Of a stretch of DNA of 32,000 nt, positions 7,223-30,748 are shown piece after piece. The stretch comes from Fibrobacter succinogenes subsp. succinogenes S85 (GTDB lineage: Bacteria > Fibrobacterota > Fibrobacteria > Fibrobacterales > Fibrobacteraceae). The notes below the pieces were generated by a model. That model was not told the DNA's origin. It worked only from the letters and a program-made list of their open reading frames with translations, and ran no database searches. The stretch spans positions 1,260,001 through 1,292,000 of the forward strand of contig NC_017448.1 in the NCBI RefSeq assembly GCF_000146505.1, read 5' to 3'. The stretch's first letter is position 1. The number at the start of each line of letters is the position of its first letter. The position numbers were made by a program, and so were the translations under genes.

Positions 7223-9440
7223 AAGCTTCTTCCATCATTTTTCTAACATACGGGAGCAGTTCATGACGCGGGTCCATTTCATCGCCGCCGTGAGTCTTCT
7301 TGAATTCGACCGTATCGATTGGTTCGAGAATCTTAATGTTGACCGGGTGGTGCTTGGAATCCTTGCGGTGTTCCCAAAGCAAGTCGGAACCACGAGTGAC
7401 CATCGGCAATATAATAGCGTTTGCCTCGACGGCAAGTCTAAAGCAACCGCTCTTGAAAGCGACCATGCCATCGCGCTTGCTGCGGGTGCCTTCCGGGAAA
7501 ACGAAGAGTCTCGGCATTTTGCCCGTCTGGAGCGCCTTCTGGATAATCGCGGCGCCACCGCCCTTTTCACGGTCGATAAAGACACAACCGAGCTTGTGCA
7601 TCCAGAAGTTCAGAATCGGGATGCACTGCAACTGAGTTTTGGCGATAAAGCCCACGGTTCGCTGCAAGGCGAGGAACGCCAGCGGGATATCCAGATACGA
7701 ACGATGGTTCCCCATCACGAACACCGGGCGTGTCCAGTCCACTTTTGCAAGTTGCGCCTGGTCTTCAATCGTCAAGTCCACACGCAAGACCTTCATGCAG
7801 AAGCGGGAGAAGACCTGTACCTTTTCTTCAAGCCATGGATCCAGGTCTTTACGACGGAAAATGTACATGAATGCAATCTTGAAAATATATTCGAGCATAA
7901 ACGCAAAAATTCTTGCCGCTCCATATATCCTAAATAACATCACTGGCATATTACACTCTGTTTTTGAACTTTCCTTGGGCAAAAAACGAGACCGTTTGAG
8001 TTTCGTAAGGCGCCCTTTCCAATATCTACGTTTGCAATATAGCAAAACCAAAAAAGATTCAGCCCGCGTGACCCCGACGTAAAACAATCGACGTTCCTCA
8101 TCGAGCTGTTTTTGGCGCTGTTTACGTGAGCCCAAGCACGAACCCGGCGTAAGTCCCTCGGACATCCCCGCATAATAGACCACCGCATACTGAAGCCCCT
8201 TGGACGCGTGGACCGTCTCGACATGAATTCCGTTTTCAAGGACCTCACCCTCCCCCTCTACGTTACCCGCCTCCGACACGACCGTCCCTGCGATCGGGAG
8301 ATGCGCATCGCGGAGAGCTTCTTCGTAATATAGGCGTTGCCTATTATAGCGCACGAGGATTGCAAAGTTTTTCCATTGGAGGTCATAGCTTTCTCGGAGC
8401 AACTTGATACTCGTGATGATTTTTTGCATTTCTTCGACGGGGTCTTCGCTCACCCAGATTTCGGGTTCACGGTTTTCCTTGAAAATCGGCGAGCCGCCCG
8501 AGCCGTTCATGTTTCCCGCACGCAAGACCTTCCGCAAGTGGATAGGCTTGTTTTCAAAAATCCTATTCGAAAAATGTAAAATGTTCGCGACCGAACGATA
8601 ATTCCATTCCAAGCGAATCAGAGAGCTCTCCTTGAAGTCATCGCGGAAACGGTTGATATTCCCGATATCGGCCCCACGGAATCCGTAAATAGCTTGGTCA
8701 TCATCGCCCACAACAAACAACGACTTGCGCTCACCCAGCAGCGCTTTGACAAGCCGATACTGCGACGGGTTGATGTCCTGATATTCATCAACAAGTATTT
8801 CCGTCCATTGATTTTGGAAATAGGCACGCGCCGACTCGTGATTTTCAAGCAGATTAATCGCCTGGTAGATGAGGTCTTCAAAAACAACTTGACCAGATTC
8901 CAGAATGCGATGACGCAATGGTTCAAGTTTTTTGAGGAGCTTCGCGGGATGCGCATCCGAGAAAAGCTCTTCGCGAGAAAAGCGGAATTTTCGACCGCCG
9001 ACTTTCGCGAGTTCCTGCATAAAAGTCTTGTCCGCCGATTCCGTCGGGACCGGCATTTTCTTGAATCCGACAAGTTCGTACGCAGGGCAAGAGCTGCAAG
9101 CGCCCGCCGCACAAGCCTCATCATACCCAACAGGAACCTTAGATTTAAGAACAAACAGCGCGAGCGAGTGGAACGTGCAGAGCCGCACACCAGCATTCGG
9201 GAAAAGCTTTTGCACACGCTCCCGCATTTCGGCAGCAGCCTTCGCCGTAAACGTGAGCGCCAAGATTTTCTCTGGTTCAACGCCCGACATAATCCGGTAC
9301 TGGATTCGCTTGGTCAAGACCGAAGTCTTTCCCGAGCCAGCCCCTGCTAGAATTAAAAGTTGTCCGTTCTTTTCATGATCGTGGAGTACCGCCGCACGTT
9401 GGTCGGAGTTCAGCCCGACCAAAAGACTTTCTACATCCAT
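7206..9440 (-). CDS. UvrD/PcrA-like SF1 helicase (aa 1-~497) fused in frame to a PlsC-type 1-acylglycerol-3-phosphate acyltransferase (aa ~498-744)
   Basis: Helicase motifs: AGAGSGKT, VDEYQD, GDDDQAIYGFRGA, NYRS, VHASKGLQY, YVGVTRA. A hydrophobic segment MPVMLFRIYGAARIFAFMLEYIF follows, then acyltransferase blocks NHRSYLD (Hx4D) and FPEGTR. One uninterrupted reading frame. The stop overlaps the murI start by 17 nt. Confidence 0.8.
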   Translation of the reverse strand: MDVESLLVGLNSDQRAAVLHDHEKNGQLLILAGAGSGKTSVLTKRIQYRIMSGVEPEKILALTFTAKAAAEMRERVQKLFPNAGVRLCTFHSLALFVLKSKVPVGYDEACAAGACSSCPAYELVGFKKMPVPTESADKTFMQELAKVGGRKFRFSREELFSDAHPAKLLKKLEPLRHRILESGQVVFEDLIYQAINLLENHESARAYFQNQWTEILVDEYQDINPSQYRLVKALLGERKSLFVVGDDDQAIYGFRGADIGNINRFRDDFKESSLIRLEWNYRSVANILHFSNRIFENKPIHLRKVLRAGNMNGSGGSPIFKENREPEIWVSEDPVEEMQKIITSIKLLRESYDLQWKNFAILVRYNRQRLYYEEALRDAHLPIAGTVVSEAGNVEGEGEVLENGIHVETVHASKGLQYAVVYYAGMSEGLTPGSCLGSRKQRQKQLDEERRLFYVGVTRAESFLVLLYCKRRYWKGRLTKLKRSRFLPKESSKTECNMPVMLFRIYGAARIFAFMLEYIFKIAFMYIFRRKDLDPWLEEKVQVFSRFCMKVLRVDLTIEDQAQLAKVDWTRPVFVMGNHRSYLDIPLAFLALQRTVGFIAKTQLQCIPILNFWMHKLGCVFIDREKGGGAAIIQKALQTGKMPRLFVFPEGTRSKRDGMVAFKSGCFRLAVEANAIILPMVTRGSDLLWEHRKDSKHHPVNIKILEPIDTVEFKKTHGGDEMDPRHELLPYVRKMMEEAYDRRL

Positions 9441-14763: not shown

Positions 14764-17448
14764 ATGGCAAAGAGCATAGAAGAACAGGTCGAGGATTGGT
14801 GCAAAAACCAACTAGAAAACTACTTTACCAAAACAGAGAGCATCAACTCAGAAATCGACAAAGCTCTTAAAACTGCTCCCAGCAAAAAAGGCGGTTCGGG
14901 CCAAAACCTTCCCGATATCAAATGCTTTGTATCTGTTGGTTTCAGAAATATCCCTGTCATGATTGAATGCAAAGGAACTAAAGGTGATTTCGCCAAAACA
15001 GACGAAAACGGATTAATATCCAATACAAATAAAAAAGGAGAAACAGATTATACCGCCATTACAAAATACGCCGTTAATGGAGCTATTCACTATGCAAAAT
15101 CAATTCTCGATTTTACTGAAACATATAAAGAAACAATTGCCATTGGAGTAAATGGCTATAAACAAGATAACGACTTGCAACTAGAAATAGGTGTTTACTA
15201 TTTATCAAAAGACAATCTCGCAATACCTAAGAAAGTTGGAGATTTCTCAGACCTGAGTTTCCTAAAAAAGAAAAACTTGAAAGAATTCTTTGAAAAAATC
15301 GACGAACTTAAACTGACGTTAGAAGAGATAGAAAGCAGAAAACTTGCTCTCGAAGATGAAATCGAAACCAAATTGAAGCGTCTAAACCAAACAATGCATG
15401 ACGATTTAAGTATCACAGTCAAATCAAGAGTGATGCTCATCGTTGGACTAATTATGGCGGGGCTTGGCGTTGAAGATGTTTCTGAAGGTCTTAAAGTTGA
15501 AGAATTAAAGGGAGAATTAGGTCCAAAATCGAATGATGCTCAAAAAATCATCAATAAGGTAGAAGACTTTTTACGGATGAAAAATCTTCCTGAAGAAAAA
15601 CGTGAAGCTATAATGCACGAGCTTTCAAATGTATTCAAAAATGAGGATCTTTACAAACCGAAGAATGGAGAAAGCAAACTGAGAAAAGTTTACGTTATCG
15701 TCCATAAGGATATCCTACCATATCTCACATCTGATTTGCCCAATATTGATTTTACAGGAAGGCTTTTCAACGTTCTCAATGATTGGGTCGATGTTCCTGA
15801 TGGTGCCGAAAATGATGTTGTTCTGACCCCTCGATATGTAACAGAATTGATGGCAAAACTTACTGAAGTCAATATGAACAGTTATGTTTGGGATTATGCT
15901 ACCGGTTCTGCTGGTTTCTTAATTTCAGCGATGCATTTAATGATCGCAGATGCAAAAAACAAGATAAAGAGCCCTGAAGAACTACGAAAAACAATCGCAA
16001 AAATTAAAGCAGAAAAACTATTAGGCATTGAGAAACTTCCTGAAATTTACATTCTCGCTGTTCTGAATATGATTTTGATGGGTGACGGATCGTCAAACAT
16101 TATCAATGGAGATTCAACACAATTTGATGGGAAATATAAACAAGGAAAAATGAAAGACAAAGAATTTCCGGCAAATGTGTTCCTGTTGAATCCGCCCTAT
16201 TCTGCCCCCGGCAAAGGATTAAATTTTGTAGAGAAAGCTCTTTCGAAGATGAAAAGTGGTAAAGCAGCTGTTCTAATTCAAGAGAATGCTGGGAGTACAC
16301 AAGGTGACGGTTACACAAAAAAAATTTTGAACAAAAATACCTTAATTGCATCCATACACATGAGTACTGATTTGTTTATCGGCAAATCAAGCGTGCAAAC
16401 AGCTATTTACGTTTTTGATGTAGGTATTCCTCATGATACTGAAAAACTTGTAAAGTTCATAGATTTTTCAAATGACGGTTACGCTAGACAAAATCGTAAA
16501 AAGTCTAGTCAAAGTGTAAATCTAAAAGACGCCGATAATGCAAAAGAACGCTACGCAGAACTCGTGAATCTAGTGGTTCGAGGTAAAGGAAAAGACGATA
16601 AAAATCTAAACTACTACAAAGACTGTTATGTAGAAGACTATATAACTAGTGAAGGAAATGATTGGACATATAGTCAGCACAAGAAAATAGACATTAAGCC
16701 TACAGAGAATGATTTCAAAAAAATTATCAAAGAATACATGGCTTGGCAAATCAGCAATCTTATAAGAAATGAAGACATTTATCCATGGACAAATAAATCC
16801 CCAGAGCAAAGCAATTGCATTCTTTCTAAAAAAGAACGTGATTGTATTCAAATGAAGAACGCAACATTCAAAGCAATTACCATTGGATCCTTATTTGATA
16901 TCCATCCAACCAAAGCATACAAAGCAACAAATAAGGATTTATTTAAGGAAAAAGGCAAAGTTCCCGTTGTAGCCAATTCCTCTGTAGATAATGGTATTGG
17001 CGGATGGACAAACCTAAAAGCAACAGAAAAAGGCAACAAGGTAGTATTTAGCGATACCACAACATCTGATTCTATATTTTATCAACCCAATGATTTTGTG
17101 GGTTATCCCCATGTCCAAGGACTATACCCATATTGTAACAAATGGGATGAAAACAGCTTATTGTATTTTATTACTTGTTTTAGAAAAAGTGCTTCAGGAT
17201 TATTTAATTACGGAAATAAGTTTACTAGGAAAAATGCTCTAAAAATGAAAGTTTTTCTTCCCGAAAAAAATAAGGAAGATATAGATTTCAGTTTTATGGA
17301 AACTTTCATTTCTGCACAAAAGAAACTCATTATTCAAAAATTGTCTTGTTGGCTAGAACAACAAAAAATCAATAACGAAATATACATAATAGAGAAAGAG
17401 ATTCCTCAAGACACACTTTCCATGATTGCGGAAAAGAAACATCATTAG
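14764..17448 (+). CDS. Single-polypeptide restriction-modification enzyme: N-terminal PD-ExK nuclease, gamma-class N6-adenine methyltransferase, C-terminal HsdS-like TRD (Type IIG/IIB-like)
   Basis: Nuclease motif ...GGSGQNLPD(51)IK...VMIE(68)CK(70)G. Methylase motif I VWDYATGSAGFL and motif IV NPPY (nt 16189..16200). The C-terminal ~200 aa (FKAITIGSLFDIHPTKAYK...VPVVANSSVDNGIGGW...FSDTTT...) resembles one specificity-subunit target-recognition domain. A hand-counted 60-nt sample is 32% GC, against 52% in valS. Confidence 0.8.
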   Translation: MAKSIEEQVEDWCKNQLENYFTKTESINSEIDKALKTAPSKKGGSGQNLPDIKCFVSVGFRNIPVMIECKGTKGDFAKTDENGLISNTNKKGETDYTAITKYAVNGAIHYAKSILDFTETYKETIAIGVNGYKQDNDLQLEIGVYYLSKDNLAIPKKVGDFSDLSFLKKKNLKEFFEKIDELKLTLEEIESRKLALEDEIETKLKRLNQTMHDDLSITVKSRVMLIVGLIMAGLGVEDVSEGLKVEELKGELGPKSNDAQKIINKVEDFLRMKNLPEEKREAIMHELSNVFKNEDLYKPKNGESKLRKVYVIVHKDILPYLTSDLPNIDFTGRLFNVLNDWVDVPDGAENDVVLTPRYVTELMAKLTEVNMNSYVWDYATGSAGFLISAMHLMIADAKNKIKSPEELRKTIAKIKAEKLLGIEKLPEIYILAVLNMILMGDGSSNIINGDSTQFDGKYKQGKMKDKEFPANVFLLNPPYSAPGKGLNFVEKALSKMKSGKAAVLIQENAGSTQGDGYTKKILNKNTLIASIHMSTDLFIGKSSVQTAIYVFDVGIPHDTEKLVKFIDFSNDGYARQNRKKSSQSVNLKDADNAKERYAELVNLVVRGKGKDDKNLNYYKDCYVEDYITSEGNDWTYSQHKKIDIKPTENDFKKIIKEYMAWQISNLIRNEDIYPWTNKSPEQSNCILSKKERDCIQMKNATFKAITIGSLFDIHPTKAYKATNKDLFKEKGKVPVVANSSVDNGIGGWTNLKATEKGNKVVFSDTTTSDSIFYQPNDFVGYPHVQGLYPYCNKWDENSLLYFITCFRKSASGLFNYGNKFTRKNALKMKVFLPEKNKEDIDFSFMETFISAQKKLIIQKLSCWLEQQKINNEIYIIEKEIPQDTLSMIAEKKHH

Positions 17449-20756: not shown

Positions 20757-22298
20757 ATGCATTTGAAGAGTTGTGGATTATCACTGTTTGCACTCGCTGC
20801 AGCATCATTTACGTTTACCGCATGTACCGATTCCAATCCAAGCACGCCATTCGCAAACACGCCTGTCGCAGGCCCCACAGAATCAAGCTCTTCAAGCGAC
20901 GGCATTCCTACCTCCAGCGAAAACCTTTCTAGCTCAGAAATTTTCGCATCAAGTTCTAGCAGCGCGCAGTCCCCTATTATACAAGCCGGATTCCAGACCT
21001 GGCGCGGGACCGACAAAGCACAACAAATCATAACCGGTTACGATGCAGGAACAGGAACTTCTGGCTACTGGTACGAAGTCAACGATTCTGCGTTTAACGG
21101 CGCATCAAAAGTTATTTGGGTCGCAGCAGCTTCCGAGCAATGCGAAGGCATTTGCGGAACATTTGTTCTGGATAGAGCAAACATGACCTACAACCCGTTC
21201 GCAGCAGTCGCATTCGATTTAGCGGGCAAAAATGCACAAGGCGAGCTCGTAGCTATTGATGCGACAGACATGGGAGGCATTTGCATTACCTACTCCTCCG
21301 ATTTCGCCCCGACTCTGGAACTTTCACTTGGCGAAGCACAAAACGCCATCTACGAATACGCACTCCCTATCAAAAGTCTCAGAAAAACAGCAACACCCGA
21401 AACATTCAACATCAAGTGGTCTGAATTCCTACAGCCCGCTTGGGCGAAAAACAAAATCACAAGCGAAGAAGCCATAAAGAAACTCGTTTCTATTCAATTC
21501 AAAGTTCAAGCAACAACCGGCAGCGAATCCAGATTCGACATTATAGAAGTCGGCAGTTACGGGAATTGCACATACACACCGCCACCGACACCACCCATTG
21601 ACCAAAACCCAGATTCCGATCCGAACCCGAACTTGCCCAAGACTTCACCGTTTGAAACCTGGTATGGTAGCCTCGGAGATTATCGAATCATAACCGGCTA
21701 CGATGCAGGAACAGAAACATCCGGATACTGGTTCACTTACGGAGACGACCCTATCGCCGGAGCATCTTATATTGTTTGGCCTGTAGAAACAGACTATATA
21801 CCAGGCGAAAACGATTGGATGGACCCCATCATAGACCATTGCGAAGGAATTTGCGGAACAATCGAATTTAACAAAGGAAAAATGACCGAAAGGAGTCCTT
21901 TTATCGGGCTAGGTTTCAACATTGCCGGAGAAAAAAGTCTAGACGACGATATATATACGGGTGAACCGGTTGATGCATCCGCTATGGGCGGCGTTTGCGT
22001 CACCTACACCTCCAACAACGACATAGACCTCATATTAGGGCTCGGCGCAAAAGAGGAAGAATACGATTACAACCTTCCCACCAAAGTACTCCCAAAGAGT
22101 CAAACACCTATGACCAAGTACGTTGCATGGGCAGATTTCAAACAACCGAGCGAAGGAAACGGAAAAAAGATTTCCGGTGAAGGAGCCGCAAAAATCCTAA
22201 CCATGATTAAATTCGAGATACCTGGGGAACACGGCACGCAAGCATCTGTCAACATCAAGTCCGTTGGGCCGTACAACGGTGGCGATTGCCATCCGTAA
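20757..22298 (+). CDS. Lipoprotein with Ser-rich tether and two copies of an unrecognised ~200-aa four-Cys module (paralog 1)
   Basis: Lipobox LAAASFTFTAC|T and a GGAGG RBS. Ser-rich linker. Each module has ...(T/E)W.G...I.TGYD.GT.TSGYW..., C.GICGT, MGG(I/V)C(I/V)TY.S, a K/W...F.QP motif, and a terminal G..(C). Confidence 0.8.
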   Translation: MHLKSCGLSLFALAAASFTFTACTDSNPSTPFANTPVAGPTESSSSSDGIPTSSENLSSSEIFASSSSSAQSPIIQAGFQTWRGTDKAQQIITGYDAGTGTSGYWYEVNDSAFNGASKVIWVAAASEQCEGICGTFVLDRANMTYNPFAAVAFDLAGKNAQGELVAIDATDMGGICITYSSDFAPTLELSLGEAQNAIYEYALPIKSLRKTATPETFNIKWSEFLQPAWAKNKITSEEAIKKLVSIQFKVQATTGSESRFDIIEVGSYGNCTYTPPPTPPIDQNPDSDPNPNLPKTSPFETWYGSLGDYRIITGYDAGTETSGYWFTYGDDPIAGASYIVWPVETDYIPGENDWMDPIIDHCEGICGTIEFNKGKMTERSPFIGLGFNIAGEKSLDDDIYTGEPVDASAMGGVCVTYTSNNDIDLILGLGAKEEEYDYNLPTKVLPKSQTPMTKYVAWADFKQPSEGNGKKISGEGAAKILTMIKFEIPGEHGTQASVNIKSVGPYNGGDCHP

Positions 22299-22315
22299 AG
22301 CAGTAGGAGCGCCAT

Positions 22316-23944
22316 ATGCTTTGCTCGCAAAAATTTTTCAAGCCGTATATATTAGCAGCCATCGCAGTTTCTGCAACCTTTGTCGCTTGCGGAGACTCCG
22401 ATACCGTGGCGCCTCCGCCCTCGTTTGAATCAAGCTCTTCTAACGGCGGTATTTTTGCATCGTCCAGTTCCGTTATAATTGCAGGTTCTTCAAGCGATTT
22501 CGCCGTTTCGTCAAGTAGCGTAGCGCTATCCAGTTCGCAGATTGCTCCATCCAGTTCCAGCGCACAGCCGCCCATAATCAAGACCAAAGAGGCTATTTGC
22601 GGTGACATGTGGTGCGCTCGTAGAGACCGAGATTCCCGCGTCAATACCGGTTTCGATGCAGGCTTCGAGACTTCCGGTTATTGGTTTGATGAATCCGACA
22701 CGGAATATCAAACGGAAGGTTCCACAATCACTTGGGAGGGCTTCGACAACAGAGATTGCACCTTCGCTGACGACTGCTTTGCAGATATGATTGAGCAATG
22801 CGGCGGCATTTGCGTAACACAAACGCTCGTAAAGCGAGACCAAGTAAACAATCTATACGCGAGTATCGGATTTAACGTTGCCGGTGTTGACGAACAAAAT
22901 AAACGTATCGTCACCGACATTTCTGAACTAGAAGGACTCTGCGTTGTTTACACCTCCGACACAGAGGTTTATCTCGAAATGCACATAGACGATGTTTCGA
23001 ATAAATATCTCGCCCTCGATTTTCCTCGCGCCACGCTTCCCCAAGCATCCACCCCCGTCATGAAAGATTTCACTTGGAAAGATTTCAAGCAAGACGGAAC
23101 AGGCAATATGAGGATATCCGGTGAAGACGCCGCAAAGAGTCTAGTCTCGCTCATGTTCACATTAAAGGGCAGTCAAGATGCATCCAATCACTTCAACATC
23201 ATGTCCATAGGTCGTTACGGAACATGCAGAACAGTCGCCAACGTAGATTCCGTTGCACAGCTCTCTAAAAGTCCATTCCGAACCTGGCATGGTTCTAGAG
23301 ATTTCGAAATCAAAACCGGTTACGACAACGGGAGTAAAACATCGGGTATATGGTTCAGCATTTTCGATGACCAGCAAAATGGCGCTTCATCAATAACCTG
23401 GCCGATAGACCCACCTTATGACAACTTCAGCGAGGACTCCTTTGACAGTTGGAGAATGGAGCTTATAGAAGAATGTAAGGGAATTTGCGCGGAATACTAT
23501 CTTAACAAATTCCAATTCCCCGACGAAAAAGAGCCATTTGTAGGAATTGGCATCATTATAGCTGGAGAAGAAATCAATCCCGAGAGCAATATATCCTACC
23601 TGACAACAATAGATGCAACAAACATGGGCGGGGTTTGCGTTTCGTACACATCCGACAATGACATGTATATACAAATGGGACTCGGCGATAAGAAAGACGA
23701 AGAACTGAATTACGCGTTGCCAATCGTTTCGATTCCCGCAAGCAAAGAAGTCAACACGGTGTACGTGAAATGGTCGCAATTCCAGCAGCCCTCATGGTAT
23801 GATGGAGACAAAAAGATTACAGGAGCAGAAGCCGCAAAATCACTAGCCGCAGTTCATTTCCTAGCGCACGGTCAAAGCGGTTCTGCAGGCAAATTCAACA
23901 TCATGTCTATCGGCCCGTACAACAGAGGCTACTGCTACCCATAA
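22316..23944 (+). CDS. Lipoprotein, paralog 2 of the two-module family
   Basis: Lipobox SATFVAC|G and an AGGAG RBS, 17 nt after paralog 1. A very Ser-rich tether is followed by two modules with CGGICVT/CKGICAE, EGLCVVYTSD/MGGVCVSYTSD, and W.DFKQ/WSQFQQPSWY. Confidence 0.8.
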   Translation: MLCSQKFFKPYILAAIAVSATFVACGDSDTVAPPPSFESSSSNGGIFASSSSVIIAGSSSDFAVSSSSVALSSSQIAPSSSSAQPPIIKTKEAICGDMWCARRDRDSRVNTGFDAGFETSGYWFDESDTEYQTEGSTITWEGFDNRDCTFADDCFADMIEQCGGICVTQTLVKRDQVNNLYASIGFNVAGVDEQNKRIVTDISELEGLCVVYTSDTEVYLEMHIDDVSNKYLALDFPRATLPQASTPVMKDFTWKDFKQDGTGNMRISGEDAAKSLVSLMFTLKGSQDASNHFNIMSIGRYGTCRTVANVDSVAQLSKSPFRTWHGSRDFEIKTGYDNGSKTSGIWFSIFDDQQNGASSITWPIDPPYDNFSEDSFDSWRMELIEECKGICAEYYLNKFQFPDEKEPFVGIGIIIAGEEINPESNISYLTTIDATNMGGVCVSYTSDNDMYIQMGLGDKKDEELNYALPIVSIPASKEVNTVYVKWSQFQQPSWYDGDKKITGAEAAKSLAAVHFLAHGQSGSAGKFNIMSIGPYNRGYCYP

Positions 23945-23967
23945 ACGACACTATTCAACTTGAAAAC

Positions 23968-23996
23968 AGGCACTCCACATGGAGTGCCTTTTTTTT
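23968..23996 (+). terminator. Rho-independent terminator after paralog 2
   Basis: AGGCACTCC-acat-GGAGTGCCT (perfect 9-bp stem) followed by T7. Confidence 0.85.
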
Positions 23997-24290
23997 GCGC
24001 TTTTCCAGCGTCATATTTTTGAAAGCAAAAAATTACATTACCATTTTTGGCTCAAAAAGCATGTATCATAAAGCACACCAATAGCACTACAACTCGTATT
24101 ATATAGAACAACATTCTTGATATTTCAGCACAAGTTCACGTATTATATTGAATAACCCTTTTGTATTAAAAAGAAATTCAGTATAACAAACAAAGTAACA
24201 AATTCATCTTTTGTACAAAAATTAATTTTTCTTTTCAATTTTAACTTATATATATTTTCAGTACCAACTTAAACGAATAGGAGGAACCTT

Positions 24291-25886
24291 ATGAACAGAA
24301 AACAGAGAAAATCATTCGGCAAGGCATCGCTTTTCGCGTTGATTGCCGCATCACTTCCATTTACAGCCTGTAGCTACTTGGATGACATCATGCCCCCGGA
24401 ACACGACCCGGGCCATGACCACCCGATAATCAGAAGCTCGTCAAGCAATCTCGTTGAATCATCTTCATCCACCGTACGTCCCCACTCATCTTTTGAGACC
24501 TGGTACGGCTATGAAGGTATTCCGCAAATTGAAACCGGATTTGGCAACGAAACAGAATCATACGGTTACTGGCTCTCTAAAAATGATGAAAGCGAAGGCG
24601 GACTTTCTCAAATCTTCTGGCCAGCCGAAAAGGGCAACGATTACAGCGACGACGCGATGGACAATATTATTGAGCACTGCGGCGGTCTTTGCGGTACATA
24701 CTTGCTCAATAAAGGTTCTATGACCTACAATCCGTTTGTTAGCGTCGGTTTCAACCTGGTTGGCGAAAGGGTCTTCGGTGACCCGACACCAGCACCTGCA
24801 AACGCCACAAGCATGGGCGGTGTCTGCGTCACTTATGCATCTGACATGATAGTTTCGCTTGAAATGGGCCTCACCGATGAAATGGAAGAAAACGTCGGTT
24901 ACGCCGTTCCGAGCGCAACCCTCCCCAAGAGCGCTACAGGCACGACAAAGTTCCTCTCCTGGTCTGATTTCAAGCAGCCCTCCTGGTATAAGGGTTCATT
25001 CAAGATGCCCGGCGAGAAAGCAGCCCAGCAGCTCGTTTCTCTCAGATTCAAATTCCAGGGAACAAGCGGTTCTCTCGGCAGCTTCAACATTGCAGCGGTT
25101 GGCCCATACGATGGCTGCAAGGACTCCATGTTCCCGGTCTACAAGCCAACGCCGACAATCCCTGACCCGGTGGACCCGCCTGATCCGATTGATCCTCCGG
25201 CACCGACAACAAACGATTTCGAAACCTGGTTCGGTTACAACAGCATTTACCAGATTCAAACCGGTTACGATAACGGCTCCGCAACATCTGGCTACTGGTT
25301 CAGCTACGGCGACGACGTTGATGGCGGCGCTTCAAAAATCGTTTGGCCAGTAGAACTCGGCAACGAATACAGCGATGACGCCATTGATCCGGTTATTGAC
25401 TACTGCGGCGGCCTCTGCGGCACAGCAATTCTCTCCAAGGGAACTCTGACTTACAGTCCGTACGTTGGCGTAGGTTTTGGTTTGGCTGGTGAATCGAAGT
25501 ATGGCGACCTCGAACCAGCCGATGCCGCAGGCATGGGTGGCGTATGCATCTCGTACATTTCCGATGTCGCACCGGCCCTTGAAATGAGCCTCGGCGAAGA
25601 AATGGACGCAGCCATCGGTTACGCATTACCGGCAGCATTCCTCCCGAAGAGCACCGTCGGCACGACAAAGTTCCTCAAATGGTCCGACTTCAAGCAGCCC
25701 TCCTGGTACAAGGGCGCCACCAAGATCACTGGCGAACAGGCTTCTAGAATGCTTGCATCCCTCAAATTCAAGATGCAGGCAGCTCCGGGTTCCTACAACT
25801 TCAACATTCAAGCCATTGGCCCGTATAACGGAGGCACATGCAGTAACACCTTCACAGCGGGTTCCAACAAGAAGAAACGCCACTAA
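24291..25886 (+). CDS. Lipoprotein, paralog 3 of the two-module family
   Basis: Lipobox SLPFTAC|S and an AGGAGG RBS. The two modules are visibly more similar to each other than those of paralogs 1 and 2 (ETW(Y/F)GY...TG(F/Y)..., CGGLCGT, MGGVC(V/I).Y.SD, KF L.WSDFKQPSWYKG, FNI.A(V/I)GPY.G). They are joined by a Pro-rich PDPVDPPDPIDPPAP linker. Confidence 0.8.
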   Translation: MNRKQRKSFGKASLFALIAASLPFTACSYLDDIMPPEHDPGHDHPIIRSSSSNLVESSSSTVRPHSSFETWYGYEGIPQIETGFGNETESYGYWLSKNDESEGGLSQIFWPAEKGNDYSDDAMDNIIEHCGGLCGTYLLNKGSMTYNPFVSVGFNLVGERVFGDPTPAPANATSMGGVCVTYASDMIVSLEMGLTDEMEENVGYAVPSATLPKSATGTTKFLSWSDFKQPSWYKGSFKMPGEKAAQQLVSLRFKFQGTSGSLGSFNIAAVGPYDGCKDSMFPVYKPTPTIPDPVDPPDPIDPPAPTTNDFETWFGYNSIYQIQTGYDNGSATSGYWFSYGDDVDGGASKIVWPVELGNEYSDDAIDPVIDYCGGLCGTAILSKGTLTYSPYVGVGFGLAGESKYGDLEPADAAGMGGVCISYISDVAPALEMSLGEEMDAAIGYALPAAFLPKSTVGTTKFLKWSDFKQPSWYKGATKITGEQASRMLASLKFKMQAAPGSYNFNIQAIGPYNGGTCSNTFTAGSNKKKRH

Positions 25887-25915: not shown

Positions 25916-25955
25916 AAAAAATCCGGCCTCGCATGAGGTCGGATTTTCAATTTCA
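25916..25955. repeat. Left copy of the 40-bp perfect direct repeat (bidirectional terminator hairpin)
   Basis: AAAAAATCCGGCCTCGCATGAGGTCGGATTTTCAATTTCA is identical to 29195..29234. It contains the TCCGGCCTC-gcat-GAGGTCGGA hairpin, flanked by an A-run and a T-run. Confidence 0.95.
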
Positions 25956-25972
25956 CCATGAATGAAATTTTT

Positions 25973-26812
25973 TTATTTAGACAATTCAATTTCACGACAT
26001 TTACAACCCGAATAAAGGCCTGAAAAATCAGGATCTATATTCAATTTAGCATCCTCTAAAACCTGCTTTAATTCCTTTTCGTATTTTGATTCGGCTTTCT
26101 TATCTTTTTCACTATTTTCATCATCTTCAAACGAATCAAGCCTCGGATCAAAAGTCATACGTTTGATTAAGTTATTAAAAGATTTTTTATAGGAAACAAA
26201 AACAACTTTATTTTTATCAAAGTCTTTAATTTTTTTTGAGTTTTTATCCCAAACAATAAACAATCTCAATTCTTGCTCGTAACTAAAAGCTTTTCGCTTC
26301 AGAGACATTAAGCTAACATACGAACGTTCAAGTTTATCTTCAGTAAAATTTCGCTTTTTATGAACATTTTTTATTTCGTGTTCAAATTCATATTTAGCAG
26401 CAGCAAAATATATTCTAGCACTATGTTTATCAGCAAAAGAATTTAAAGCATCCAAAAGTTCATACAAATCAAATACTACACGAATATACGGTTCATCGGA
26501 AGTTTTGCTTCTACTCCAAAAAGCTTCAGCATTTTCACTTGAGGAACTTGTAAAGCAAAGACACGCCATGTTCGGTAAAGCAACGGACTCTTTAGGCTTC
26601 CCCTCCTTATTCTTCACAACCTTAACATCGTAGAAACGTTTTTCAAAAGGATCCTCCCACAATTCTGGCGACACAAAAGCAATTTGTCGATTTTTCAACA
26701 TTTCACAAACGCGGGAAAAAGGCATATAACGACAAACTTTAGGATTTTCCCAGTCAAGAGACAATTCACCAACGAAATGAACGTTATTCCAAATAAAAGG
26801 GGATTTCTTCAT
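25973..26812 (-). CDS. DUF2971-like protein (function unknown)
   Basis: Remembered DUF2971 pattern: an early helix plus F.SP..(W/F).DPFE (here QIAFVSPELWEDPFE), a mid C..(F)T....E....W..(Y/S) block (ACLCFTSSSSENAEAFWS), and a late K...(F/W)..E.E.R (KRKAFSYEQELRLF). I prefer the ATG at 26812, which has AAGGTG 8 nt upstream. The ORF-track start at 26821 is a GTG. Confidence 0.65.
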   Translation of the reverse strand: MKKSPFIWNNVHFVGELSLDWENPKVCRYMPFSRVCEMLKNRQIAFVSPELWEDPFEKRFYDVKVVKNKEGKPKESVALPNMACLCFTSSSSENAEAFWSRSKTSDEPYIRVVFDLYELLDALNSFADKHSARIYFAAAKYEFEHEIKNVHKKRNFTEDKLERSYVSLMSLKRKAFSYEQELRLFIVWDKNSKKIKDFDKNKVVFVSYKKSFNNLIKRMTFDPRLDSFEDDENSEKDKKAESKYEKELKQVLEDAKLNIDPDFSGLYSGCKCREIELSK

Positions 26813-26836
26813 TACTAACACCTTGTGTTTATAAAA

Positions 26837-28582
26837 TCAATTGAACAGGGCGTTAATTTCATCTGCAGTGAATTGACCTTCTGCAAACATATCCGTTATT
26901 TTGGTTCCCTGTTTCCATTTGCTTGCAATGTTCCACTTGGAAATATCACCATGGAAGGAAGATTCTTGAAACATACTTTCCATATCGGTAACATTGGAAA
27001 CATTCCACTTGGAAATATCACCGCTAAAGGTTGTTTTCATAAACATCTTCTTCATATCCTTTACATGGGACACCTCCCATTGAGACAAATCCGAAGATAC
27101 GTTACATCCCCAAAACATATAACTCATATCTTCTGCCTTGGAAACATTCCATTTACTGACATCGCCACTGAATTTCGATGCAGAGAACATCGCACTCATA
27201 TCTTTTACATTAGCAACATTCCAGTTGGAAACATTACCAGAAAACGTTGTCCCATGGAACATACTTTCCATATTCGTTACACTTGAAACATCCCACTTTG
27301 AAACATCACCATCAAAATTTTCGCATTTATCAAACATTCTTTCCATATTTGTGACTTTTGACACATTCCATTGACTGATGTCACCATTGAATTTGGAGCA
27401 AGCAAACATGCTACTCATATCCTTCACATTCGAAACATTCCAGTTCGAAATATCACCCGTAAATGAGGATCCGTAAAACATCTTCATCATATTCTCAACA
27501 CGAGAAACATTCCATGTAGAAATATTCCCATTAAATTTTGATTCAAAGAACAAACTGCGCATATTGGTTACATTAGAAACATTCCAATTGCTGATATTAC
27601 CATTAAAAATAGAGCCAGAAAAGCATCCTTCCATATCGGTAACTTTGGACGTATTCCACTTACTAATGTCCCCACTAAATTTGGACTTACGGAACATTCT
27701 ATACATTCTCGTTACATTAGACACATCCCAGTTGCTGATATCACCATTAAATTCGGACTCTTCAAACATGTTACTCATATTCGTCACACTAGAAACATCC
27801 CACTTGCTGATATCACCTTTGAATTTCGAACCATCCGCGAAATTCTGACCAAACATATTACTCATATCAGTCACACTTGATACAACCCAGTTGCTAATAT
27901 CTCCATTGAATTTGGAGCTAGCAAACATGTCACTCATATTCGTTACCTTTGAGACATTCCATTTACTGATATCGCCATTAAACTCCGACTCTCCAAACAT
28001 GTTATTCATATTCGTCACATTTGAAACATTCCACTTGCTAATATCTCCATTGAATTTGGAGCTAGCAAACATGTTACTCATATCCGTCACATTTGAAACT
28101 TTCCATTTGCTGATATCGCCATTAAATTCGGAGTGTTTAAACATTCCACTCATATTCGTCACATTTGAGACATTCCACTTACTGATATCACCATTGAATT
28201 CCGATTCACTATCGGAAAAATCATCGTCAACGCAACCAAACATATTACTCATATCAGTCACACTTGATACATCCCAATTGCTAATATTTCCATTGAATTC
28301 GGAGCCAGCAAACATGCTACTCATATCCTTCACATTCGAAACATTCCATTTACTGATATCGCCATTAAACTCCGACTCTTTAAACAGATAGCTCATATCT
28401 GTAATTTGAGATACATCGATATAATTCAAATCACAATTCGGCCCTTTACTTTCAATCGCCCTTTTGATCAACGATTGAAGTTCTTCCTTTCTTTTAGGAT
28501 GGTTTGCCAATCCAGCAATCATGCTATCAAAATCGTCCATGCGATCACGTTTTTTAAATAATCTGCTAAAAAAAGACATCAT
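26837..28582 (-). CDS. BspA-type leucine-rich repeat protein (DUF285 repeats), no signal peptide
   Basis: About 20 tandem 24-25-aa repeats of F..S.FNGDIS.WNVS.VT.M..MF. The N-terminus MMSFFSRLFKKRDRMDDFDSMIAGLANHPKRKEELQSLIKRAI is hydrophilic, with no Sec or lipoprotein signal. Confidence 0.85.
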   Translation of the reverse strand: MMSFFSRLFKKRDRMDDFDSMIAGLANHPKRKEELQSLIKRAIESKGPNCDLNYIDVSQITDMSYLFKESEFNGDISKWNVSNVKDMSSMFAGSEFNGNISNWDVSSVTDMSNMFGCVDDDFSDSESEFNGDISKWNVSNVTNMSGMFKHSEFNGDISKWKVSNVTDMSNMFASSKFNGDISKWNVSNVTNMNNMFGESEFNGDISKWNVSKVTNMSDMFASSKFNGDISNWVVSSVTDMSNMFGQNFADGSKFKGDISKWDVSSVTNMSNMFEESEFNGDISNWDVSNVTRMYRMFRKSKFSGDISKWNTSKVTDMEGCFSGSIFNGNISNWNVSNVTNMRSLFFESKFNGNISTWNVSRVENMMKMFYGSSFTGDISNWNVSNVKDMSSMFACSKFNGDISQWNVSKVTNMERMFDKCENFDGDVSKWDVSSVTNMESMFHGTTFSGNVSNWNVANVKDMSAMFSASKFSGDVSKWNVSKAEDMSYMFWGCNVSSDLSQWEVSHVKDMKKMFMKTTFSGDISKWNVSNVTDMESMFQESSFHGDISKWNIASKWKQGTKITDMFAEGQFTADEINALFN

Positions 28583-28595
28583 AAGCCCCTAGTAA

Positions 28596-29105
28596 TTAAC
28601 GTTTATTCTGCGAATCAAATTTTTCGGCTAATTTTTTTTGTCTAATAATATATTCTCTACCTTTTGTATTTTGACATCCAAAACACATTTTCTTAGAGGA
28701 TTTTTTTCGTTCAACATGAGCGCCATCCACATACTCATACGAGAAAGTTTTTATTGGATTTTTGTCCTCCAAAAAAAATTTATGGCAGCAACAGCACAAA
28801 GCATACGATTGCAAACAATCATTACACAATGGCTTACCTAAAGGGCTCTTAACAGCAGAAAGCCCCTGTTCTTCATTAAATGTAGCCTCACAACGAAAAC
28901 AGGTAAACGTTTTCAATCCCGCAATACGTTTTGCTTCGGCGGCTTCCCTCAAAGCTCTAGCAGAGTCTTCAGCAGCTTGACGCTGAAGTTCTTCCATCCG
29001 TTCGCGATGTTCTTCTTCTTCAATTTTTTCGTTATAACAATCCTGACATAGCCCATCAGATAAATAACCTTCTTCCCGAACTCCACACCTTCTACACAGA
29101 GCCAT
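28596..29105 (-). CDS. Cys-rich zinc-ribbon / coiled-coil protein (169 aa, function unknown)
   Basis: N-terminal CRRC-x14-CQDC, followed by an acidic/charged helix EEEEHRERMEELQRQAAEDSARALREAAEAKR. The C-terminal part has CFRC-x22-CNDC, then a CCCCH cluster and CFGC. GAGGA RBS. It lies 13 nt upstream of the LRR gene. Confidence 0.65.
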   Translation of the reverse strand: MALCRRCGVREEGYLSDGLCQDCYNEKIEEEEHRERMEELQRQAAEDSARALREAAEAKRIAGLKTFTCFRCEATFNEEQGLSAVKSPLGKPLCNDCLQSYALCCCCHKFFLEDKNPIKTFSYEYVDGAHVERKKSSKKMCFGCQNTKGREYIIRQKKLAEKFDSQNKR

Positions 29106-29194
29106 AATATTTCCTCGTTTAAAGAATGAATTTATACTAACATGCTACATAGTAAGCAGCAATAAGCATAATTGAACTGTTAAAATATACTAAT

Positions 29195-29234
29195 AAAAAA
29201 TCCGGCCTCGCATGAGGTCGGATTTTCAATTTCA
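29195..29234. repeat. Right copy of the 40-bp perfect direct repeat (terminator of the purF-like gene)
   Basis: Identical to 25916..25955. A separate 14-bp perfect palindrome GCGGGCATGCCCGC lies at 29244..29257, between this repeat and the purF stop. Confidence 0.95.
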
Positions 29235-29275
29235 ATCAAACGTGCGGGCATGCCCGCGACATTTCGAATTGCGGA

Positions 29276-30748
29276 TTATTCCTTATCCTTTTCCTTATCG
29301 TGGCAATGGCACGGGCAATGATAGCAGTCACCCGTTTCGGCGTAGTCCTTGCCAGTCCAGCAGTAGGTGCAAAGGTCTTCTTCCGGGAGGCCGATAGCCT
29401 GAATCAAGTCGTCAATGCGCTGGAACGCAAGCGACGTGAGGTTCAGCTTCTTGCGGATGTATTCGACCATGTCCTTGTACGGCTGGCCATTCGGATCGGT
29501 GTACTTGTCCAAATCGGCGTTTTCGCCTTCCTGGTCGCGAATGTAACGGCGCGTGATGAGGTCGTATTCATTCTTGGAGCGAGAGAAGTTGATGAACTTG
29601 CACGGATAAACGAGCGGCGGGCAAGCGATACGCATGTGCGTTTCCTTGCAGCCCATTGAATAAAGTTTCTGGGCCTGCTTACCGAGCTGCGTTCCGCGAA
29701 CGATGGAGTCATCGCAGAAAACGAGGCGACGGTCCTTGATGAGACCCGGAATCGGGATGAGCTTCATCGAGGCGACATGTTCACGCTGGCGCTGGTCCTG
29801 CGGCATAAAGGAACGAGCCCAAGTCGGCGTGTACTTCACGAACGGGCGAGCAAACTTGATGCCGGCTTCGTGTGCATAGCCCAAGGCGTGAGACGTACCG
29901 GAGTCCGGAATACCGCAAGCGGCATCGGCTTCGGTCGGGGTGCGCTTCGCAAGAGCGGAACCGCAACGGTAACGGGTCATTTCCACGTTACGACCTTCGT
30001 AACTGGAGGCCGGGTAACCGTAATACACCCAGAGGAACGAACAAATTGCCATCTTCTTGCGCGGCGGAACAAGCGTCGTATCGCCATCCGGCGTGAGCTC
30101 GACCACTTCACCCGGACCAAGATCACGGACGTATTCGTAACCGAGGTTCGGAAGTGCGCAGCTTTCTTGCAAGGCGATCATGGCGCCATCCTTCTTACCA
30201 AGGATTACAGCCGTACGGCCCCACTTGTCACGGCACGCATAAAAACGCCCCGCGCTATCCATAATCAGCACGGAGCAACTTCCCTTCACCTTGTCCTGAA
30301 CGTACTTGAGACCGTCAATAATTGAATCCTGCGTAGCGATAAGCGCTGAAACAACTTCGGTCGGACCGACCATGCCACTCGTTGTAGAGAACTGGAGCTG
30401 CATGCAGTTGTTGCGGAAAAGTTCGTTCTTAATATCTTCGATGTTCGTGATGAGGCCAACAGTCACAATCGCGAACGTTCCCAGCTTGGAGGTCATGACG
30501 AGCGGCTGCGGGTCCGTGTCAGAGATGACGCCTAAGCCAACCTTGCCGGAAAAATGTGTTAAATCGTGTTCAAACTTACTGCGGAACGGAGTGTTCTGGA
30601 TGTTATGAATCGAGCGATGGAAAACACCATCCGATTTCAAAACAGCCATACCGCCGCGGTGAGTGCCAAGGTGAGAATGGTAGTCGGTTCCGTAAAAGAG
30701 ATCGCAAACGCAATCTTCTTTGGAAATAACACCACAAAAGCCGCCCAT
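29276..30748 (-). CDS. purF: Amidophosphoribosyltransferase-like class II (Ntn) glutamine amidotransferase
   Basis: The MGGFCGVIS N-terminus carries the Cys nucleophile. PRPP-binding loop VFCDDSIVRGTQ. The C-terminal C.YCWTG.DY is typical of PurF. I prefer the start at the second Met (30748) over the ORF-track start at 30787. Confidence 0.72.
   Translation of the reverse strand: MGGFCGVISKEDCVCDLFYGTDYHSHLGTHRGGMAVLKSDGVFHRSIHNIQNTPFRSKFEHDLTHFSGKVGLGVISDTDPQPLVMTSKLGTFAIVTVGLITNIEDIKNELFRNNCMQLQFSTTSGMVGPTEVVSALIATQDSIIDGLKYVQDKVKGSCSVLIMDSAGRFYACRDKWGRTAVILGKKDGAMIALQESCALPNLGYEYVRDLGPGEVVELTPDGDTTLVPPRKKMAICSFLWVYYGYPASSYEGRNVEMTRYRCGSALAKRTPTEADAACGIPDSGTSHALGYAHEAGIKFARPFVKYTPTWARSFMPQDQRQREHVASMKLIPIPGLIKDRRLVFCDDSIVRGTQLGKQAQKLYSMGCKETHMRIACPPLVYPCKFINFSRSKNEYDLITRRYIRDQEGENADLDKYTDPNGQPYKDMVEYIRKKLNLTSLAFQRIDDLIQAIGLPEEDLCTYCWTGKDYAETGDCYHCPCHCHDKEKDKE

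Follow-up and report, generated by a model that had tools for sequence, protein, structure and literature searches.

A strain-variable three-gene islet between two copies of a terminator hairpin in Fibrobacter succinogenes S85

The chromosome of Fibrobacter succinogenes subsp. succinogenes S85 carries, within the 32-kb stretch analysed here (contig NC_017448.1, positions 1,260,001 to 1,292,000; hereafter the window, numbered from its first letter), an AT-rich islet that lies between two identical 40-bp copies of a terminator hairpin. It holds a cassette of three genes, which encode a 169-aa zinc-ribbon protein, a 581-aa DUF285 repeat protein and a 279-aa protein of the DUF2971 type. The islet is a real insertion: related contigs have the same junction with one hairpin and no insert. 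Comparison of alleles indicates that it is old and strain-variable, having been in the population for about as long as the strains have been diverging. We favour, with confidence that stops a little short of even, the reading that the two repeats are the products of recombination between a hairpin borne by the cassette and the hairpin resident at the empty site. The cargo, judged from homology and structural models, probably serves phage defence.

The repeat and the empty site

The 40-mer, AAAAAATCCGGCCTCGCATGAGGTCGGATTTTCAATTTCA, occurs twice with 40/40 positions identical (Table 1), against 0 matches in 100 shuffles, and the window holds no third copy with up to 3 mismatches allowed. When compared with the empty site of contig L005, which has an A-run of six, the duplicated stretch reaches 42 bp (TA plus the 40-mer). 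As an earlier note on this DNA had described from the letters alone, the copies are identical and enclose 3,239 bp that hold the three-gene cassette, all three open reading frames (ORFs) lying on the minus strand. The insert has a GC content of ~36% overall (0.29-0.39 along its length), versus 0.52-0.59 in the flanks.

The 40-mer is predicted to fold into a hairpin with a 13-bp stem and a 4-nt loop (~-20 kcal/mol, z about -3.4 to -4), the stem being preceded by an A-run and followed by a T-run. On the minus strand 6-7 U trail the stem, so that efficient termination of transcripts from that strand is expected; the plus strand has just 4 U after it. The earlier note took the hairpin to be the terminator common to the convergent genes on either side, a predicted lipoprotein gene and a purF-like gene. 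Its role behind the lipoprotein gene stands, whereas the purF-like gene has a proximal hairpin of its own, so that the 40-mer is the second hairpin downstream of that gene and not the sole one. The terminator of the upstream lipoprotein paralogue is unrelated to the 40-mer hairpin. Membership of a known RNA family was rejected, as Rfam gave only a chance-level match (P9, E = 0.98).

Scans for the exact 40-mer pattern returned one match among 185,579 representative genomes, which lies in a Fibrobacter metagenome-assembled genome (MAG) and is syntenic, two matches in JGI metagenomes, both syntenic, and no match in IMG/VR viral contigs. With every match syntenic, a high-copy or dispersed repeat was rejected for the scanned sets, among which the rest of the S85 chromosome is not known to be.

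Six contigs cross the junction without the insert, each with a single hairpin (L005, L002, L003, L034, L035 and L036), and a seventh, L004, ends just beyond the hairpin with an L002-like continuation. All were found through an exact match to the lipoprotein sequence at the protein level or through the hairpin-pattern scan; L005, L002 and L003 are ENA assemblies (k=141 or scaffolds), L034 and L035 are JGI metagenomes, and L036 is a Fibrobacter MAG. The earlier note had predicted that deleting the insert with one repeat would restore a normal junction, and had proposed looking for it in relatives. The contigs bear this out: the only departures of L005 from the reconstructed empty site are a G>T change and an A-run that differs by one A, and the single hairpin of the empty sites is conserved (36/36) save at one variable stem position.

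A shorter repetition was also noted at this end of the islet. The 11-mer TTCAATTTCAC lies at 25945-25955, on the insert-facing edge of the left repeat, and recurs at 25986-25996, 30 nt inside the insert, where it falls in the last codons of the 279-aa gene. Either microhomology or chance, in DNA this rich in AT, could account for the pair.

Occupied sites and the age of the islet

Four further contigs (L037-L040), reached by way of a homologue with 98% identity to the last cassette gene, carry this three-gene islet at the same site as S85. L037, L038 and L039 are independent long-k metagenome assemblies; the left hairpin copy was read in all four contigs, and both junctions were aligned for L037 and L039 only. 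The right copy of L037 and L039 differs from that of S85 by 3 substitutions (CCGGCTTCGTAAGAGG), and the left copy of L037-L040 by 1 substitution near its inner end. Between S85 and L037, identity is 98-100% on the lipoprotein side, 91-100% in the purF-like gene and 94-100% in the non-repeat parts of the cassette; the DUF285 repeat region falls to 57-80%. The product of the DUF285 gene also varies in length, from 581 aa in S85 to 569 aa in L037 (8267-9976) and 593 aa in L039 (1427-3208), and alignment of the alleles suggests a gene that is fast-evolving or reshuffled. The zinc-ribbon gene shows a ~90-bp length difference between S85 and L037, in its E/R-rich linker.

The earlier note had taken the undiverged repeats of S85 as a sign of recent insertion. 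This view does not survive: because there are alleles at the same site with diverged repeats, and because the divergence of the cargo matches that of the flanks, the islet is not recent. Nor is the absence of differences between the two S85 copies strong evidence of youth, since we estimate that only ~2 would be expected at the S85-L037 divergence if the copies were neutral, and fewer under selection for terminator function. On the purF side, the empty contig L005 is closer to S85 (98.9% identity) than is the occupied contig L037 (95.8%). Occupancy is thus incongruent with flank similarity, which implies recombination or repeated gain and loss.

A second genomic context

A more diverged cassette, whose 279-aa gene has 93.5% nucleotide identity to that of S85, was found in contig L059, a k=141 assembly. 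Here a 38/40 copy of the hairpin stands 21 nt after the stop codon of the 279-aa gene, and beyond it lie a further terminator hairpin and a convergent gene that shows no relation to the window or to the other loci. Homology between L059 and S85 ends where the A-run begins, which is exactly the nucleotide at which the S85 repeat has its outer edge. We read this junction as indicating that the hairpin travels with the cassette. Contig L060 encodes an 88% orthologue of the L059 flank gene, followed downstream by a ferredoxin gene, and lacks such a hairpin; it was rejected as an empty site for the second context because the intergenic region cannot be aligned.

The variant bases of the hairpin copies are unevenly placed. 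The three in the right copy of L037 and L039 fall in the cassette-proximal half, the one in the left copy of L037-L040 lies at the cassette-proximal end, and the two of L059 are in the cassette-distal half. Such a pattern would fit hybrid sites formed by a crossover inside the hairpin; with six positions, and a chance of ~1 in 16 (~0.06) by our own estimate, it is suggestive at best. Changes in the stem keep the pairing, G.T becoming A-T in L059 and C-G becoming T.G in the right copy of L037.

Searches for mobility functions

Consistent with the earlier note, which had seen no integrase, transposase or terminal inverted repeat (TIR) inside the islet, Pfam, PADLOC, PHROGs and NCBIfam gave no integrase or transposase among the three cargo proteins. 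A cryptic recombinase was likewise rejected for the cargo, as the family searches were empty and the two non-repeat proteins, to which the fold search was limited, resemble DarT and zinc-ribbon proteins, respectively. The only inverted repeat at the ends is a weak subterminal one (19/25 nt, 25967-25991 versus 29170-29194). It was judged to be chance rather than a TIR, since it overlaps a stop codon and is one of 112 such pairs in the AT-rich stretch.

A phage or plasmid origin was considered and rejected. Neither the 40-mer pattern nor the two non-repeat proteins have a match in IMG/VR, tblastn of the zinc-ribbon protein against the phage and plasmid collections was negative, and cassette DNA matches plasmids through generic DUF285 repeats only.

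Short-k assemblies break or mis-join at the 40-mer (L006-L010, L012-L018, L025 and L029), and two contigs that at face value speak for mobility were set aside on that account. One is L029 (Logan SRR21780871_133533), in which a cassette matching that of S85 at 885/885 bp runs through the hairpin into a purF flank like that of L034, an empty-site haplotype. It would have been proof of transfer of the islet between backgrounds by a crossover in the hairpin; as a k=31 metagenome contig it may be a mis-join. The other, L025, is discussed below.

Origin of the repeats

We propose that the hairpin has two roles, being resident at the empty site as its terminator and belonging to the cassette as its own 3' terminator; because it has both, the flanking copies can be read as attL/attR-like. 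An incoming, presumably circular cassette carrying the hairpin would undergo Campbell-type recombination with the homologous chromosomal hairpin, and a crossover inside the hairpin would leave one copy on each side of the insert, rather than a target duplication made by a staggered cut. The catalyst would be encoded outside the islet: either (i) a site-specific recombinase of the host might act in trans, or (ii) the general recombination machinery might use the 40 bp of identity. If the two copies recombined with each other, the islet would be lost precisely and the empty site restored. Homologous recombination in the conserved flanks is probably a further route by which the islet spreads among strains. 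The circular donor, the crossover within the hairpin and the trans-acting enzyme, like the defence function of the cargo, are parts of the scheme that we infer. Recombination between cassette hairpin and resident hairpin would explain the observed structure, its precise reversal and the arrangement in L059. Among the three mechanisms that the earlier note had listed, a donor with the same terminator therefore gains most from L059, and duplication or targeting of a hairpin gains less.

Several points count against this scheme. No recombinase candidate was found, the scanned proteins of the window included. Fuzzy matching and a covariance model built from seven variants hit only the known copies of the hairpin when applied to the other islands with zinc-ribbon/DUF285 or DUF2971-like genes and to ~178 kb of Fibrobacter DNA. 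The 40 bp of identity are, to our knowledge, more than site-specific recombinases need, and RecA-dependent recombination could use them too. The cassette is known from two contexts only, of which the second lacks its other end and a clean empty site. Finally, the junction predicted for a circle is present in a single contig, L025 (Logan SRR5194755_34, 1440-1620), where one hairpin stands between the last part of the 279-aa gene and the beginning of the 169-aa gene, as a tandem copy would also give. This contig was assembled with k=31, probably from RNA-seq, its run being among ten consecutive accessions that are probably the ten RNA-seq samples of SRP097575; because the 40-mer is longer than k, the contig can be a graph chimera, and it was set aside as proof of a circle.

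Much of the same evidence would also be accommodated by a single ancient insertion, possibly illegitimate, followed by vertical inheritance, homologous recombination in the flanks in the manner of minimal mobile elements, and repeated RecA-dependent loss, with no dedicated mobility today. S85 and L037-L040 share the site, and the non-repeat cargo (94-100%) has diverged to the same extent as the flanks (91-100%). The flanks are mosaic, with purF identity moving from 91% to 99% along the gene, and presence or absence of the islet does not follow flank similarity. Neither a recombinase nor hairpin copies turned up at the other loci searched, and the zero differences between the S85 repeats are unsurprising where ~2 are expected neutrally. 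Such a history, however, leaves the origin of the 40-bp duplication unexplained, and it must treat L059 as a coincidental rearrangement despite a breakpoint exactly at the outer edge of the repeat. We regard it as rather doubtful, and still give it appreciable weight. A true target-site duplication, in which the strands would be nicked on either side of the hairpin (perhaps extruded as a cruciform) and gap repair would copy 40-42 bp, follows the same logic as Cas1 integrases, which duplicate the CRISPR repeat, and casposases, which make 14-15-bp duplications. What is duplicated corresponds almost exactly to the terminator palindrome plus its A- and T-runs, there is no gap between repeat and insert on either side, and all empty sites have a resident hairpin. 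Against this, the unit includes 8 non-palindromic bases (CAATTTCA) on one side, and no integrase, casposase or convincing TIRs were found. We know of no bacterial transposition system that makes a 40-bp duplication, and the linkage of hairpin and cassette in L059 is not predicted unless the cassette later moved with one repeat. A duplication of this kind appears quite improbable.

That the duplication or the insert is an artefact of assembly or annotation might be suspected from the behaviour of short-k assemblies at the 40-mer. The structure is present, however, in the finished S85 chromosome, the insert in the independent assemblies L037, L038 and L039, both hairpin copies in L037 and L039, and the empty sites come from k=141 contigs; we consider an artefact refuted and give it practically no credence.

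The recombination of cassette and resident hairpins, as we favour it, would in its most general form describe a Fibrobacter cassette-mobilisation system in which an intrinsic-terminator hairpin serves as the attachment site of recombinase-less operons, each bearing that hairpin as its own terminator, and the enzyme is encoded elsewhere. Operons would enter and leave a matching chromosomal terminator, and insertion would restore terminators for both neighbours, an integron-like logic without attC or an integron integrase. We consider a system of such breadth unlikely. If the hairpin is a true attachment site, an intrinsic terminator doubles as a recombination site; if it is not, the islet is a well-documented case of one kept by flanking homologous recombination together with repeat-mediated deletion. 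The set of states is unusually clean: the repeats are exact, empty sites occur naturally, occupied sites have diverged, and the hairpin accompanies a cassette at a second locus. The recombination step is therefore directly testable in the cultivable type strain.

Comparison with known systems

In our comparison, the islet appeared most like either (i) an integrase-less, att-flanked element or (ii) an integron-style cassette. Cis-mobilisable elements (CIMEs) are integrase-less derivatives of integrative elements, for example those of the ICESt1/ICESt3 family, which in Streptococcus thermophilus occupy the 3' end of fda. As in these, the islet has att-like direct repeats at both ends, placed in the 3' or terminator region of a conserved gene, no recombinase inside, and empty sites with one copy. 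Unlike a CIME, it has no known cognate element bearing an integrase, its repeat is a complete 40-bp terminator hairpin, and at just 3.2 kb it retains no remnant of integration or conjugation modules. With integron cassettes the islet shares the lack of a recombinase, a hairpin site at the 3' end, a hairpin on both sides after insertion and a catalyst that would be encoded elsewhere. The 40-mer, by contrast, lacks the RYYYAAC/GTTRRRY core, with no GTT or AAC on either strand, and is shorter than attC sites, whose length is 57-141 bp; the islet, moreover, comprises three genes together with an upstream region of its own. The scanned proteins of the window include no integrase, and the 32 kb hold only two copies of the hairpin and no attC array.

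Integrative mobile elements exploiting Xer (IMEX) and pdif modules are Xer-dependent and flanked by dif-like sites. Like the islet, they have no recombinase of their own and lie between direct repeats of an imperfect palindrome; they are moved by host recombinases. The 40-mer differs in that by eye it does not resemble E. coli dif. Cumulative GC skew falls steadily through the site and, because there is no switch there, the 40-mer is unlikely to be the chromosomal dif. The minimal mobile elements of Neisseria are cassettes between conserved genes that are exchanged by flanking homologous recombination, with no flanking duplication. Presence or absence between two conserved genes, lack of a mobility gene and mosaic flanks are common to them and the islet; flanking repeats, and a site at which only one type of cargo or the empty state was seen, set the islet apart.

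Other classes fit less. The cargo includes no tyrosine or serine recombinase such as an integrative element with its own enzyme would carry (genomic island, integrative and mobilisable element or integrative and conjugative element). For a DDE transposon or insertion sequence (IS), no transposase was found, the inverted repeat is weak, and the duplication is 40-42 bp versus 2-15 bp. A palindrome-associated transposable element of the IS200/IS605 type (PATE) is not indicated either, as the empty sites keep one complete hairpin and no TnpA is encoded in the window.

Cargo genes

Defence-gene islands without mobility genes are common, and their entry and exit are mostly unexplained. The cargo of the islet points to a candidate defence operon. 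The 279-aa protein (282 aa from an alternative GTG start at 26821) matches the PADLOC candidate PDC-S31 (E = 8.9e-27); its match to Pfam DUF2971 is weak (19.5 bits, under the 22-bit cut-off), and its homologues on plasmids carry the DUF2971 annotation. E179 and E181, which form an ExE motif, are invariant in the alignment. The top PDB matches of its AlphaFold2 (AF2) model (predicted local distance difference test [pLDDT] 73) are DarT (prob 0.98, E = 2e-3). The profile match and the ExE motif are those of the DUF2971/PDC-S31 antiphage ADP-ribosyltransferases. DUF2971 has been grouped with DarT/AbiGi-like ADP-ribosyltransferases (PMC12522546), and one DUF2971 protein, Aristaios, confers an abortive-infection phenotype (PMC11381338). 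With its PDC-S31 match, ExE motif and DarT-like model, the last cassette gene resembles Aristaios, PDC-S31 and DarT, and we regard it as a candidate abortive-infection defence gene. Unlike the single-gene DUF2971 systems, it is the third gene of an operon with zinc-ribbon and DUF285 proteins, and there is no DarG-like antitoxin.

The 581-aa protein matches Pfam DUF285 (E = 3e-202) and the NCBIfam PARCEL repeat, and its gene is built of 72-bp repeat units in 16 copies. Identity to the L037 and L039 counterparts is 60-80%. No signal peptide or lipobox was seen by eye at its N-terminus. For the 169-aa protein, encoded by the first cassette gene, 10 homologues were found; in their alignment the CxxC pairs are conserved and the E/R-rich linker is variable in length. 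Its AF2 model (pLDDT 78) gave weak fold matches, to zinc-ribbon (eS26-like) ribosomal proteins. Among the homologues P0002-P0010, the full length ranges from 169 aa (S85) to 221 aa, with invariant Cys motifs and large length variation in the E/R-rich coiled-coil linker. The 89-nt region upstream of the operon is presumed to be the promoter or leader. Cassette genes are present in contigs from runs that are probably RNA-seq, which suggests that the cassette is transcribed in culture.

The zinc-ribbon gene recurs together with a DUF285 gene that shares the N-terminal domain (L047, 4944-8230; L041, 10001-11486; L052, 10001-11073), and the pair is found beside candidate defence genes. One such pair adjoins genes for an FRG-domain protein (PADLOC PDC-S15) and a PDDEXK_2 protein (Rpn-like nuclease family); another sits after a radical-SAM gene. 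The pair may be a defence module not yet described. In L047, a perfect 55-nt direct repeat (9085-9139 and 9240-9294, spacing 155 nt) is missing from the otherwise similar L048, and is either a small tandem duplication that alters the gene call or an assembly artefact.

Table 1. Features of the islet and its flanks, in window coordinates
Feature	Position	Strand	Basis or remark
Left flanking gene, 531-aa predicted lipoprotein, third of three tandem paralogues	24291..25886	+	Gene call
Left hairpin copy	25916..25955		Lipoprotein-gene terminator (+ strand); cassette-operon terminator on the minus strand
AT-rich insert, 3,239 bp	25956..29194	-	Missing from empty-site strains
279-aa DUF2971-type protein, predicted DarT-like ADP-ribosyltransferase fold	25973..26812	-	PADLOC, motif, AF2 model
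581-aa DUF285/PARCEL repeat protein	26837..28582	-	Pfam, NCBIfam, repeat count
169-aa protein: N-terminal zinc ribbon, coiled coil, C-terminal Cys-rich domain (predicted)	28596..29105	-	Alignment, AF2 model; first cassette gene
Cassette upstream region, 89 nt	29106..29194	-	Starts directly after the T-run of the right hairpin; ~95% conserved in L037, L039
Right hairpin copy	29195..29234		Between the purF-like gene's own hairpin and the cassette upstream region
Proximal terminator-like hairpin of the purF-like gene, GCGGGCATGCCCGC	29244..29257	-	Different REP-like (repetitive extragenic palindromic) hairpins in other strains
Right flanking gene, purF-like class-II glutamine amidotransferase, 490 aa as annotated	29276..30748	-	Pfam GATase_7

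Flanking genes and other features of the window

The purF-like protein scores 184.7 bits against TIGR01134, the purF equivalog model, whose cut-off is 350, and is probably not a canonical amidophosphoribosyltransferase. Its tail is Cys/His-rich and K/E/D-rich, and the last codons vary among strains. The spacer between the hairpin and this gene (29235-29275) holds a different palindrome according to strain: GCGGGCATGCCCGC in S85 and L005, GTCATTCCCGCCTCCGAGCGGGAATC in L002, L034 and L035, and CGTCATCCTGAGCGAATAGCGAAGGACC in L036. A palindromic element like that of L036 also lies downstream of the L060 flank gene. From these comparisons the spacer appears to be a turnover hotspot for small hairpins.

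On the other side, three tandem predicted lipoproteins of 513, 542 and 531 aa occupy 20757-25886; they contain internal duplications and match nothing in Pfam. In L035 and L036 the identity of the third is only 68-80%, though valyl-tRNA synthetase (ValRS) and purF are 91-97% identical there. In L002-L005, the lipoprotein gene shows 19-22 nucleotide differences, all of them synonymous.

A type IIG restriction-modification enzyme of 894 aa (PADLOC REase_MTase_IIG, E = 3e-187) is encoded at 14764-17448 (+), some 9 kb upstream of the islet. The gene at 1765-4425 (-) specifies an 886-aa protein with repeated laminin-G/concanavalin-like domains and internal DNA repeats of 612-732 bp; a long ORF is also found on the opposite strand of this gene.

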